A DNA stretch of 64,000 bases from Bacteroidota bacterium. Its GTDB lineage: Bacteria; Bacteroidota; Bacteroidia; Flavobacteriales; Flavobacteriaceae. The stretch is taken from NCBI GenBank assembly GCA_039030475.1, contig JBCCEC010000012.1, positions 2,744-66,743 of the forward strand. The letters run 5' to 3'. Made by a program: the position numbers and the translations under genes. This document shows positions 14,358-31,397 of the stretch, piece by piece; positions within the stretch are counted from its first letter, which is position 1; every line of letters starts with the position of its first letter. The notes under the pieces are model-generated. The model did no database searches, was not told the DNA's origin, and saw nothing but the letters and a program-made list of their open reading frames with translations.

Positions 14358-14732
14358 CTAATTCCCTAATCTAGAGAGCCATAGCCCAATTGCAACGGCC
14401 AAAACACCTAGAATTATGCTTAATGCCAAGTAGAAAGAAAAGTGAAGAATATCACCGTTTTTTAATAAACTGTGCTTTTCCAGTGCAAATGCAGAAAATG
14501 TAGTGAAGCCTCCACAAAAACCTGTAGCAAGAAATAACGTACTGTTATAGGATACTAAACTGCTCCTTGATGCTATTCCTAGAATTAAACCAATGAGCAA
14601 TGCACCAATAATATTGACTAAAAAGGTTCCCAAGAAGAAATTTGGAAAGATATTATTTAAAGGTTTGGTAATGACATAACGAAGTACGCTACCAAAACCA
14701 CCACCTAAAAAAACAAGAAAAGCTTGCTTCAT
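14358..14732 (-). CDS. crcB: Fluoride channel Fluc/CrcB
   Basis: GGGFGSVLRY, GTFLVNIIG, TGFCGGFTTFSAF. Confidence 0.96.
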   Translation of the reverse strand: MKQAFLVFLGGGFGSVLRYVITKPLNNIFPNFFLGTFLVNIIGALLIGLILGIASRSSLVSYNSTLFLATGFCGGFTTFSAFALEKHSLLKNGDILHFSFYLALSIILGVLAVAIGLWLSRLGN

Positions 14733-14748
14733 TTATTAAATGTACAAA

Positions 14749-14928
14749 CTAAACCGCTTTCTTGTATTGACTTTTAGAAGCTTCTCGAGGTAAAATTTTT
14801 GCTACCGAAGCCTCGGATTTCTTTGAAGCTGTTTTGCTTAACTTACTGCTGGACCCGTTAACGCTGAGAAATAAGAGCAATCCGTTAACAATGAGTAGAA
14901 CCAAAAGAATGCCTAAAAATGTTGTCAT
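14749..14928 (-). CDS. Small single-TM protein (59 aa), member of a three-copy peptide family
   Basis: MTTFLGILLVLLIVNGLLLFLSVNG plus basic tail; ATG at 14928; TACTTTTG box upstream. Confidence 0.65.
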   Translation of the reverse strand: MTTFLGILLVLLIVNGLLLFLSVNGSSSKLSKTASKKSEASVAKILPREASKSQYKKAV

Positions 14929-15039
14929 GTTATACAAAACTAACGTTAAACAAAAGTACGTCTTTTACTACATTGTACGTATTGCCTTATGAATAAAGTT
15001 GTAAAACGGTTAATTTTTGTGGCATAAGTAAACTTATTG

Positions 15040-15228
15040 TTAATTTTTAAGAAAATATTTAATGAAGAATAGGAATATTATGAATGTGATAAAGGAAATC
15101 ATAACCCATTTTACTCCTTTGTAATTTTTGATATGCAAGGATTTATCCTTTCGATAAGATATTGCGATTATAGTTACAAAAGCTACAACAAAAAGAGCTG
15201 CAAAAATTAATTGTCCTGTGCTGAACAT
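15040..15228 (-). CDS. Small two-TM membrane protein
   Basis: 62 aa, two hydrophobic segments around SYRKD. Confidence 0.75.
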   Translation of the reverse strand: MFSTGQLIFAALFVVAFVTIIAISYRKDKSLHIKNYKGVKWVMISFITFIIFLFFIKYFLKN

Positions 15229-29677: not shown

Positions 29678-30610
29678 ATGCAAGACGGAATTTACGCAAA
29701 ATTTAATACTACAAAGGGTGAGATTTTAGTAAAATTGACCCATGATAAGACCCCTGGTACGGTAGGCAACTTTGTGGCCTTGGCAGAGGGCAATATGGAA
29801 AATGGCAGCAAGCCACAAGGGAAGCCCTACTATGATGGACTTAAGTTTCACCGTGTCATACAGGATTTCATGATTCAGGGAGGATGTCCTCAAGGAACGG
29901 GAACGGGTGACCCAGGATACAAGTTCGATGACGAGTTTCATCCAGGACTTACGCATGAGGGGCCAGGCGTACTTTCCATGGCCAATGCGGGCCCTGGAAC
30001 CAATGGCAGTCAATTTTTTATAACGCATGTTGCTACACCTTGGTTGGATAACAAACATACAGTTTTTGGTTTTGTGGAACACGGACAAGAAGTTGTCGAT
30101 GCCATTGCCCAAAACGATGTTTTGGAAACACTCGAAATTGTAAGAGTGGGATCAGAAGCAGAAAGTTGGAATGCAATTGAAGCATTTAGAACTTTTGAAG
30201 GAGCTAGGGAGCAGCGAATTGCAGAAGAAAAGGCGCAGGCAGAAGCAGAAATGGAAAAATTGGCAGCTGGTTTTGATACAACTGAATCGGGATTACGTTA
30301 TAAAATGATTCAAAAGGGTAGTGGAACAAAAGCTGAAAAGGGTAAAACGGTGTCGGTACACTACGAAGGTAGCTTAACGAACGGACAGGTTTTTGACTCC
30401 TCGTACAGTAGAAATCAACCTATAGATTTTACGTTGGGCGTAGGCCAAGTAATTTCTGGTTGGGATGAAGGTATTGCGTTATTAAAAGTGGGTGATAAGG
30501 CTCGTTTTGTAATACCGTCACATTTAGCTTATGGTAGTGCTGGTGCCGGTGGTGTGATCCCTCCAGATGCAACTTTGATATTTGACGTTGAATTGATGGA
30601 CGTTAAATAA
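29678..30610 (+). CDS. Peptidyl-prolyl isomerase, cyclophilin-FKBP fusion
   Basis: [13 protein letters not shown] and [16 protein letters not shown]; [26 protein letters not shown]. Confidence 0.95.
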
Positions 30611-30633
30611 AAACTGGTTAACTTAAAATGAAC

Positions 30634-30660
30634 AAAAGCTCTCAAATCTTGGGAGCTTTT
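30634..30660. terminator. Terminator shared by PPIase gene and convergent small peptides
   Basis: AAAAGCTCTCA / TGGGAGCTTTT. Confidence 0.75.
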
Positions 30661-30742
30661 ATTTTGATTTATTTACACTTACCAATAACAGACAAAGGTT
30701 AAGTGCAAGTAATAAAAGTAAAACTGTAAAAAACGTGCCCAT
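30659..30742 (-). CDS. Unannotated 27-aa single-TM peptide MGTFFTVLLLLLALNLCLLLVSVNKSK
   Basis: Manual translation, ATG 30742 to TAA 30659; aligns in register with 30866-30952 and 14749-14928. Confidence 0.65.
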   Translation of the reverse strand: MGTFFTVLLLLLALNLCLLLVSVNKSK

Positions 30743-30865
30743 CTGTATTCTATTTATTTTTCGTATATAATTCTTATCCTAACAACAACCGAACGGAAAA
30801 AAACCCTACTATATTGTCCATTCACTTTTTTAATACCCTTCATTGAGTACAAAGAATATCAAAAT

Positions 30866-30961
30866 CTACTTTTTTGAACTAGTCAGACTCAATAAAAGCA
30901 GTACTATATTAACAACCAGTAAAACTGATAGAATTGCAAAAAAGGTTCCCATAGTGTTCAT
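30866..30961 (-). CDS. Unannotated 28-31-aa single-TM peptide (MNT)MGTFFAILSVLLVVNIVLLLLSLTSSKK
   Basis: Manual translation, ATG 30961 or 30952 to TAG 30866; paralogue of adjacent peptide. Confidence 0.65.
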   Translation of the reverse strand: MNTMGTFFAILSVLLVVNIVLLLLSLTSSKK

Positions 30962-31033
30962 TTAATAGGTGGGAAAGTTTAGTTTGTTTAAACTTTAGAT
31001 GGGAAAAAGCTAATAGGTTGCGTTTAGGTTAAA

Positions 31034-31041
31034 CAAAATTA
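31034..31041 (-). promoter_or_regulatory. -7 box upstream of the tandem peptides
   Basis: TAATTTTG on the minus strand followed by TTTAAC, same context as TACTTTTGTTTAAC at 14945-14958. Confidence 0.55.
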
Positions 31042-31149
31042 TAGTAGATTTCTATAGAGCAGATTCATGGGCATTTTTAAGAAATGCGTTTTAAAGCTTT
31101 AAAGTTGATAGGTGAAGCAAGCCACGGAGTACTTACCTCCTTTTAAAAT

Positions 31150-31202: not shown

Positions 31203-31397
31203 TTAATCTATAACTTGTACATTTACGGCGTTCAATCCTTTTTTACCTTGCTGTAGTTCGAATTCTACGGCGTCACCTTCTCTAATTTCGTCAATTAAGC
31301 CTGAAACGTGTACGAAGTGATCTGTGTTTGAACCTTCTTCAGTAATAAAGCCGTAGCCTTTTGAATCGTTGAAGAATTTTACTGTTCCTTTACTCAT
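31203..31397 (-). CDS. Cold-shock domain protein
   Basis: GTVKFFN..KGYGFI (RNP1), FVHVS (RNP2). Confidence 0.96.
   Translation of the reverse strand: MSKGTVKFFNDSKGYGFITEEGSNTDHFVHVSGLIDEIREGDAVEFELQQGKKGLNAVNVQVID

Follow-up and report, generated by a model that had tools for sequence, protein, structure and literature searches.

A candidate family of very small single-pass membrane proteins behind ECF-type promoters in Flavobacteriaceae

In this study, we asked whether two very short open reading frames in a flavobacterial genome are genes and, if so, in what kind of process their products may act. The frames lie in a 64,000-nucleotide stretch of a Flavobacteriaceae draft genome, the whole of which is called the window in what follows, and their neighbours are the cold-shock gene csp (31397..31203, minus strand) and a convergent PPIase gene (29678..30610) that encodes a cyclophilin-FKBP fusion. 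A sequence-only reading of the window had claimed that two tandem paralogous transmembrane (TM) peptides are encoded here, and both ORFs are indeed found on the minus strand. ORF A (30952..30866) encodes a single-helix membrane peptide of 28 aa, MGTFFAILSVLLVVNIVLLLLSLTSSKK, and ORF B (30742..30659) encodes its paralogue of 27 aa, MGTFFTVLLLLLALNLCLLLVSVNKSK. An in-frame ATG at 30961, upstream of ORF A, would extend the peptide to 31 aa; this start is specific to the window, and the relatives start at the position of 30952. We looked for orthologues, promoters and further paralogues, and then weighed what the family is likely to do.

Two short reading frames and their family

ORF A and ORF B are alike in register at 14 of 26 residues, but only seven of these 14 residues are written with the same codon, which bears out the earlier remark that residues are shared although codons differ. 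On the DNA level the two are identical at 48 of 78 positions (62%), and no likeness was seen between the UTRs or upstream regions of the two copies. No other ORF in the 4.26-Mb draft genome starts with MGTFF, and the two are 210 nt apart; the per-genome HMM E-values for the pair (2e-13 and 3e-10) make it clear that the similarity is not due to chance. The terminator that had been placed at the second stop codon is there as well: a bidirectional intrinsic terminator (30634..30660, both strands), made up of a GC-rich hairpin flanked on either side by T-runs, abuts the ORF B stop, is kept across the genus alignment and is predicted to stop transcription of the peptides as well as that of the convergent PPIase gene.

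A DNA search of the locus together with small-ORF extraction recovered the tandem pair in each genome of the same genus, Flagellimonas (formerly Muricauda/Allomuricauda), in which type A is typically MNTFFGVLSFLLIVNALLLVWSVNGSKK and type B typically MTTFFSILxxLLALNLCLLLLSVNRAK. When counted at the genus level with a per-genome threshold of E <= 0.01, a peptide HMM matched 84 of 201 Flavobacteriaceae genera, and in an order-wide sample its matches were confined to the Flavobacteriaceae; in that sample, one large genus with at least 20 sampled genomes gave no match. In 29 further genera, the loci of which were inspected by hand, the short form was always located between csp and the PPIase gene, either singly or in tandem, as an ORF of 26-35 codons beginning with M-x-T-F-F/L. 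Over the whole family, the proteins range from 27 to 60 residues and have a single helix.

The substitution pattern speaks for selection on the protein, as had been claimed. The in-frame pN/pS values are 0.17/0.76 for ORF A (22 equal-length orthologues) and 0.22/0.78 for ORF B (26 equal-length orthologues), that is, ratios of ~0.23-0.29 with synonymous sites saturated, as opposed to 0.7-0.8 and 2.1-2.2 in the shifted (+1, +2) frames. Furthermore, several species encode the identical A peptide in different DNA. The check proposed earlier, namely conservation in relatives combined with dN/dS, has thus yielded orthologues within the genus and in other genera and a low in-frame pN/pS, and to judge from these alignments both reading frames are under purifying selection. 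As to their unannotated status, which had also been asserted, ten out of ten short peptides of relatives (up to 36 aa) were not found in a collection of 15 billion proteins, in which only one 31-aa family member was seen. A Pfam scan of four peptides gave no match, and the sole match in an NCBIfam scan of the short forms was between ORF A and an XrtV sorting-system accessory model, with 12.6 bits against a cut-off of 35. With 87 nt and 84 nt, respectively, ORF A and ORF B fall below 90 nt, which we take to be the default minimum gene length of Prodigal. This minimum and the lack of the relatives' short forms in the protein collection explain how the family could be overlooked. Their conservation marks both ORFs as real genes, members of a Flavobacteriaceae family that is undescribed and almost never annotated.

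Promoter motifs and the genes that share them

An ECF-type promoter motif, referred to here as motif A (30995..31023, minus strand), is found ~40-50 nt before the ORF A start. It consists of a -35 element, ACGCAACC (31023..31016), and a -10 element, ATCTAA (31000..30995), and can be written as ACGCAACC-N15-ATCTAA. The motif is invariant in the genus alignment, and in almost every other genus it is retained in front of the first peptide or of the only one. In its strict form it is present in only two other places in the same genome, namely upstream of a gene for a 147-aa lipoprotein, which is followed by genes for an ECF sigma factor and a single-pass anti-sigma-like protein, and upstream of the gene for a 414-aa LVIVD-repeat lipoprotein; in a genome-wide ranking with a two-block PWM the operon came first (31.3 bits), followed by peptide A with 28.6 bits and the LVIVD lipoprotein with 23.9 bits. 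The same three loci are also found downstream of motif A in the genus, where we counted 28 occurrences in 16 genomes as compared with 6 for a reversed control, and there was no occurrence in 10 genomes of other families.

The sigma factor of the lipoprotein operon contains the Sigma70_r2 and r4_2 domains and matches TIGR02937 with 81 bits (cut-off 42.9). The lipoprotein/ECF-sigma/anti-sigma operon is present in 134 of the 201 genera, and in 12 of 14 other genera ACGCAACC-N15-CATCT[AT] precedes its start by ~20 nt. A promoter of the ECF type is expected to be bipartite, with an AAC-core -35 and a -10 element 16-17 nt apart, and to have a copy at the sigma operon; motif A shows this arrangement, with a spacer of N15/16. 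As an ECF sigma factor usually directs transcription of the operon that encodes it, motif A is most simply read as the promoter of this particular sigma factor, and we infer that the motif is recognized by the ECF sigma from the lipoprotein/sigma/anti-sigma operon, with peptide A among very few predicted targets. However, a CGT -10 box, which has been reported for one flavobacterial ECF motif, is missing from motif A, and the motif could also be a site for another factor.

The lipoprotein/ECF sigma/anti-sigma operon is located outside the window, next to recA (contig C4:104342-106964 of the same genome), and its sigma gene (~104.9-105.4 kb) has a probable TTG start (LDLEELIHNCKKGK...). The same contig has a weaker site of the motif-A type (21 bits), which faces a rhodanese-like gene at C4:103234. 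Between motif A and ORF A, the 5'-UTR contains a C-rich block, TTCCC(C)...AACCATTAAA (30961..30976, minus strand), which is kept across genera and could be a binding site for an sRNA or a protein or else a translation signal. Folding predictions for the ORF A leader gave no conserved structure; the MFE values in the peptide loci range from -0.4 to -12.5 kcal/mol and are mostly above -9.

ORF B is preceded by a different promoter-like motif, motif B (30780..30812, minus strand), which is found ~35 nt upstream of the start and reads GTAGGGTTT (30809..) N12 TTGTT or, in a fuller form, R-GTAGGGTTT-N12/13-(T)TGTTA. Across genera, there are 28 distinct sites with fixed spacing before second or sole peptides. 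The form GTAGGGTTT-N11-13-TTGTT, almost always with N12, occurs 35 times in 11 genus genomes as compared with 7 times for a control, and it was not found in 6 genomes of other families. Four further sites in the same genome score 20-24 bits, after which there is a clear drop. Among the targets, those that are conserved comprise peptide B, a ~454-aa lipoprotein, a membrane protein of 55-57 aa with QFGY at its end, ~315-aa lipoproteins and, in two genus genomes, a FecR gene. In these two genomes motif B is located 24 nt upstream of fecR and also upstream of a divergent lipoprotein gene; in one of them the order is a lipoprotein gene divergent from an ECF sigma gene, then motif B, FecR and a TonB-receptor-like gene. 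FecR, ECF sigma and CarboxypepD_reg domains were confirmed in the motif-B-linked operon.

The peptide and an operon with an ECF sigma, FecR and a TonB-dependent transducer hence have a fixed-spacing motif in common, as would be expected within a FecI/FecR regulon. Based on this sharing, motif B is probably the target promoter of a trans-envelope ECF system of the FecI/FecR/TonB-transducer type, although in the one operon examined the motif does not precede the sigma gene but separates it from fecR. A role of motif B in the heat-shock response was also considered, as there is one weak site upstream of dnaK; this idea was dropped because the dnaK site is below the PWM cut-off and the conserved targets are lipoproteins and the FecR operon.

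The earlier reading had proposed yet another promoter element, a -7 box at 31034-31041. This sigma-A-like box, TAATTTTG (31041..31034, minus strand), does exist, but it is not a conserved promoter: it is specific to this genome, is missing in 13 of 13 aligned genus relatives and sits at the edge of a ~95-nt insertion (31042-31140, minus strand) that separates the csp terminator from the ECF-type promoter and that only this genome has among the 14 aligned. The long leaders that had been assumed do not hold either, since ~35 nt from the conserved promoter motifs is short. A sigma-70 scan of the locus gave no match, as is expected for a Bacteroidota host. Terminator prediction and the genus alignment revealed no terminator between ORF A and ORF B, and promoter A should therefore yield a transcript of both ORFs and promoter B a transcript of ORF B only.

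A profile of the short peptides led to a third paralogue within the same window. The long paralogue (14928..14749, minus strand) is a 59-aa protein, MTTFLGILLVLLIVNGLLLFLSVNGSSSKLSKTASKKSEASVAKILPREASKSQYKKAV, with the same N-terminal helix and, in addition, a Lys/Ser-rich tail ending in YKKAV. Only 16 nt separate its stop from the start of the downstream gene crcB (14358..14732, minus strand), which encodes a fluoride channel (Pfam CRCB, E = 7.7e-28), and the two genes are probably co-transcribed. Among eight other genera, crcB is directly adjacent to the long form in four and separated from it by one ~340-aa gene in the other four. On the upstream side a divergent MazG-like gene is followed by a two-helix membrane ORF of 62 aa (MFSTGQLIFAALFVVAFVTIIAISYRKDK...; 15040..15228, minus strand) and then by the long paralogue. 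The same neighbours are found in other genera, where the 62-aa ORF always precedes the long form. This ORF, for which Pfam and NCBIfam gave no family match, may share one unit with the long form and crcB. In many genera the short pair and the long form are 14-17 kb apart.

The long form is preceded by a sigma-A-type -7 box, TACTTTTG (14958..14951, minus strand), and a TAnnTTTG box is found at the equivalent place in eight out of eight other genera examined; TAnnTTTG is the housekeeping sigma-A -7 consensus in flavobacteria (PMC9723704). A fluoride riboswitch before crcB was not detected with Rfam, and the long-form locus gave only sub-threshold look-alikes of leaders and sRNAs. A profile search with the long form returned 97 database proteins, 88 of which are 55-64 aa long. 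Their source names are nearly all 'hypothetical protein', none has a Pfam domain, and they share a K-[IL]-[YF]-P-[LR]-[DE] motif as well as a C-terminal Y-K-K-A-[VI]. Scans of the long form against Pfam and NCBIfam gave no family, a word-index search gave no match when the long form alone was the query, and a related-locus scan with the single protein found one relative, Flagellimonas sp. 389. The sequence-only reading had missed the long paralogue beside crcB, and it had also missed that ORF A and ORF B have ECF-type promoters of two different kinds.

One conserved helix face

Both short peptides have a hydrophobic core (residues 3-23) and a Lys tail. Among 64 distinct family sequences M1, L11, N15 and S22 are invariant, and F4, L8, L18 and L19 are nearly so; the importance that had been attached to Asn15 and Ser22 is thereby borne out, and both lie on the same face of the helix. 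The conserved residues form a stripe, F4-L8-L11-N15-L18-S22, flanked by F5-L12-L19, whereas positions 6, 9, 10, 13, 16, 17, 20 and 21 vary among hydrophobic residues. Over residues 3-24 the periodicity of conservation peaks at 100 degrees per residue (permutation p < 1e-4), and it is this repeat that points to a single conserved face. The pattern is, as predicted from the alignment, that of one helix-packing face with a central Asn, and it is common to all three paralogues. In an AlphaFold2 model built on the long-form alignment, residues 2-24 form a helix (pLDDT >90), and the tail is of low confidence. With a conserved ORF of no more than 50 aa and one TM helix predicted from sequence and in the AlphaFold2 model, the short forms conform to what is called a small single-pass membrane protein. 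The N-terminus is uncharged and the Lys/Arg residues are at the C-terminus, and following the positive-inside rule the predicted topology is N-out with the Lys-rich C-terminus in the cytoplasm.

A heptad-like stripe of Leu and Phe with a central Asn on one face is reminiscent of TM leucine zippers mediated by Asn, such as those in MS1, phospholamban and sarcolipin, although the likeness is one of pattern only. MS1 peptides are designed, whereas phospholamban and sarcolipin are natural regulators of SERCA with a Leu/Ile zipper, and in all of these Asn drives oligomerization or the binding of a partner. The TM helix of the anti-sigma protein was searched for a polar partner of Asn15; it contains only small-residue motifs and nothing convincing was found.

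Possible roles of the peptides

The reading we prefer, and consider reasonably probable, is that the peptides belong to an undescribed, stress-wired family of very small single-pass membrane proteins in Flavobacteriaceae that act via helix-helix contact. As each tandem copy stands behind a different ECF-type promoter, we regard them as putative components of an envelope-stress response rather than as toxins. According to this model, envelope or surface signals would lead to the synthesis of the tail-less helices A and B from the ECF-type promoters, while the 59-aa paralogue would be made constitutively from its sigma-A promoter together with crcB. The tail-less helices would then pack through their Asn-centred, leucine-zipper-like face with each other, with the long paralogue or with another membrane protein, and this packing would change the activity of the putative partner.

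Small membrane proteins that are part of stress regulons are known, and what would be new is the family; three paralogues behind three promoters are unusual. Escherichia coli MgrB, a PhoP-induced feedback inhibitor of PhoQ with 47 aa, is similar to the peptides in having fewer than 50 aa and one TM helix, in belonging to an envelope-signalling regulon and in its presumed helix-helix contact with a partner. However, it has no sequence relationship to ORF A or ORF B, the topology of the peptides is likely to be the opposite (N-out and C-in, without a periplasmic domain), and their regulator would be a putative ECF sigma factor and not a two-component system, with three paralogues under different promoters. 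In Bacillus subtilis, YhdK with YhdL (sigma-M) and YxlD/YxlE (sigma-Y) are likewise small membrane proteins tied to ECF sigma/anti-sigma signalling, and a YhdL/YhdK complex is described in PMC6827917. The genes for YhdK and YxlD/YxlE are located inside the sigma operon, in contrast to the 27-28-aa peptides, which are unlinked predicted members of the regulon. An effect of the peptides on an anti-sigma factor is speculation.

A more specific version of the model, which we hold to be a long shot, would make the three paralogues parts of a switch within ECF signalling that is built from small proteins, in which the constitutive long form occupies the partner and copies made by the pathways compete for the interface. 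Candidates for the partner are the single-pass anti-sigma factors and the site-2 protease by which these are cleaved, and each activated ECF pathway would make its own tail-less copy (A, B or both). If this were true, it would provide pathway-specific feedback and cross-talk between two envelope-sensing systems. To our knowledge, ECF signalling in Bacteroidota has been little studied, and two paralogous helices of 27-28 residues, two ECF-type promoters and a constitutive longer paralogue elsewhere make up a regulatory design that is testable.

The earlier reading had named type-I-toxin-like peptides as one of two options. Such peptides would be depolarizing toxins whose translation is checked by an antisense or divergent small RNA and which occur in tandem like ldr, ibs and zor-orz. 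A hydrophobic peptide can be toxic regardless of what it does in its own host. With Ibs, ShoB, Ldr, Fst and ZorO the peptides share small size, hydrophobicity, a basic C-terminal end and tandem copies, and these are given as general features of type I toxins in two accounts (PMC2887945, PMC8309996). Other observations make a toxin less likely. A conserved sigma-A -7 box (TAnnTTTG), as a signal of an antisense RNA, was not found on the antisense strand in 14 genus genomes, and the only Rfam match at the locus, to Phe_leader, is sub-threshold, with no sRNA family found there. Homology to Hok, Ldr, Fst, TisB, ShoB, Ibs, TxpA and other toxin families was not found in Pfam or NCBIfam. Moreover, the leaders of ORF A and ORF B are unalike and their promoters are different, and both look like distinct stress promoters; the long paralogue, constitutive by its promoter, is co-oriented with crcB; and the invariant polar residues on one face would suit a specific packing but not general membrane damage. 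[quoted passage not shown] Taken together, a type I toxin identity of ORF A and ORF B is unlikely, and we would give it a very small chance.

The helix face common to all three paralogues would also fit accessory subunits of one membrane complex, in which the long form would be the constitutive subunit, maybe of CrcB or the 62-aa protein, and A and B its stress-specific replacements. KdpF, CydX (PMC4325964) and AcrZ are precedents for such small subunits. The position of the long form, 16 nt upstream of crcB and always after the 62-aa membrane ORF, is in line with this. However, the ~340-aa gene that comes between the long form and crcB in half of the eight genera, the lack of a fluoride riboswitch or other shared regulation, and the distance of 14-17 kb to the differently regulated short forms all weaken the case, and we know of no requirement of Fluc channels for accessory subunits; we consider this explanation improbable, if worth keeping in mind. 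Finally, the RNA itself could be the functional product, as a stress-induced small RNA or an attenuator, with the ORFs being incidental. The predicted transcript is a short one with a strong terminator at its end, and the Phe_leader (RF01859) match at 30629-30737 (minus strand) covers ORF B and the terminator; however, its 33 bits are far under the gathering score of 55, and it is explained by a Phe/Leu-rich coding sequence beside a hairpin. As the next gene, that for the PPIase, is convergent, there is nothing downstream to attenuate, which rules out an attenuator. A conserved leader fold was not predicted, and identical peptides arise from different DNA in several species. It is the codon pattern, with synonymous sites saturated and amino acids kept in this frame only, that rules out an RNA-only reading, to which we attach next to no probability.

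Marine Flavobacteriaceae are abundant degraders of polysaccharides in the ocean, and a family that is present in a large share of them and has so far gone unseen would represent a blind spot of annotation. The two small predicted ECF regulons provide motifs that can be used for annotating relatives. Outside the window, there is a strong terminator ~110-130 nt beyond a motif-B site at contig C28:25966 (minus strand) of the same genome; the interval contains no convincing ORF and is a candidate small RNA of the motif-B regulon. A weaker GTAGGGTTT-type site at contig C38:14638 (minus strand), also outside the window, is located upstream of the gene for a 51-aa membrane protein, which by its sequence presumably resembles the YqaE/Pmp3 family.
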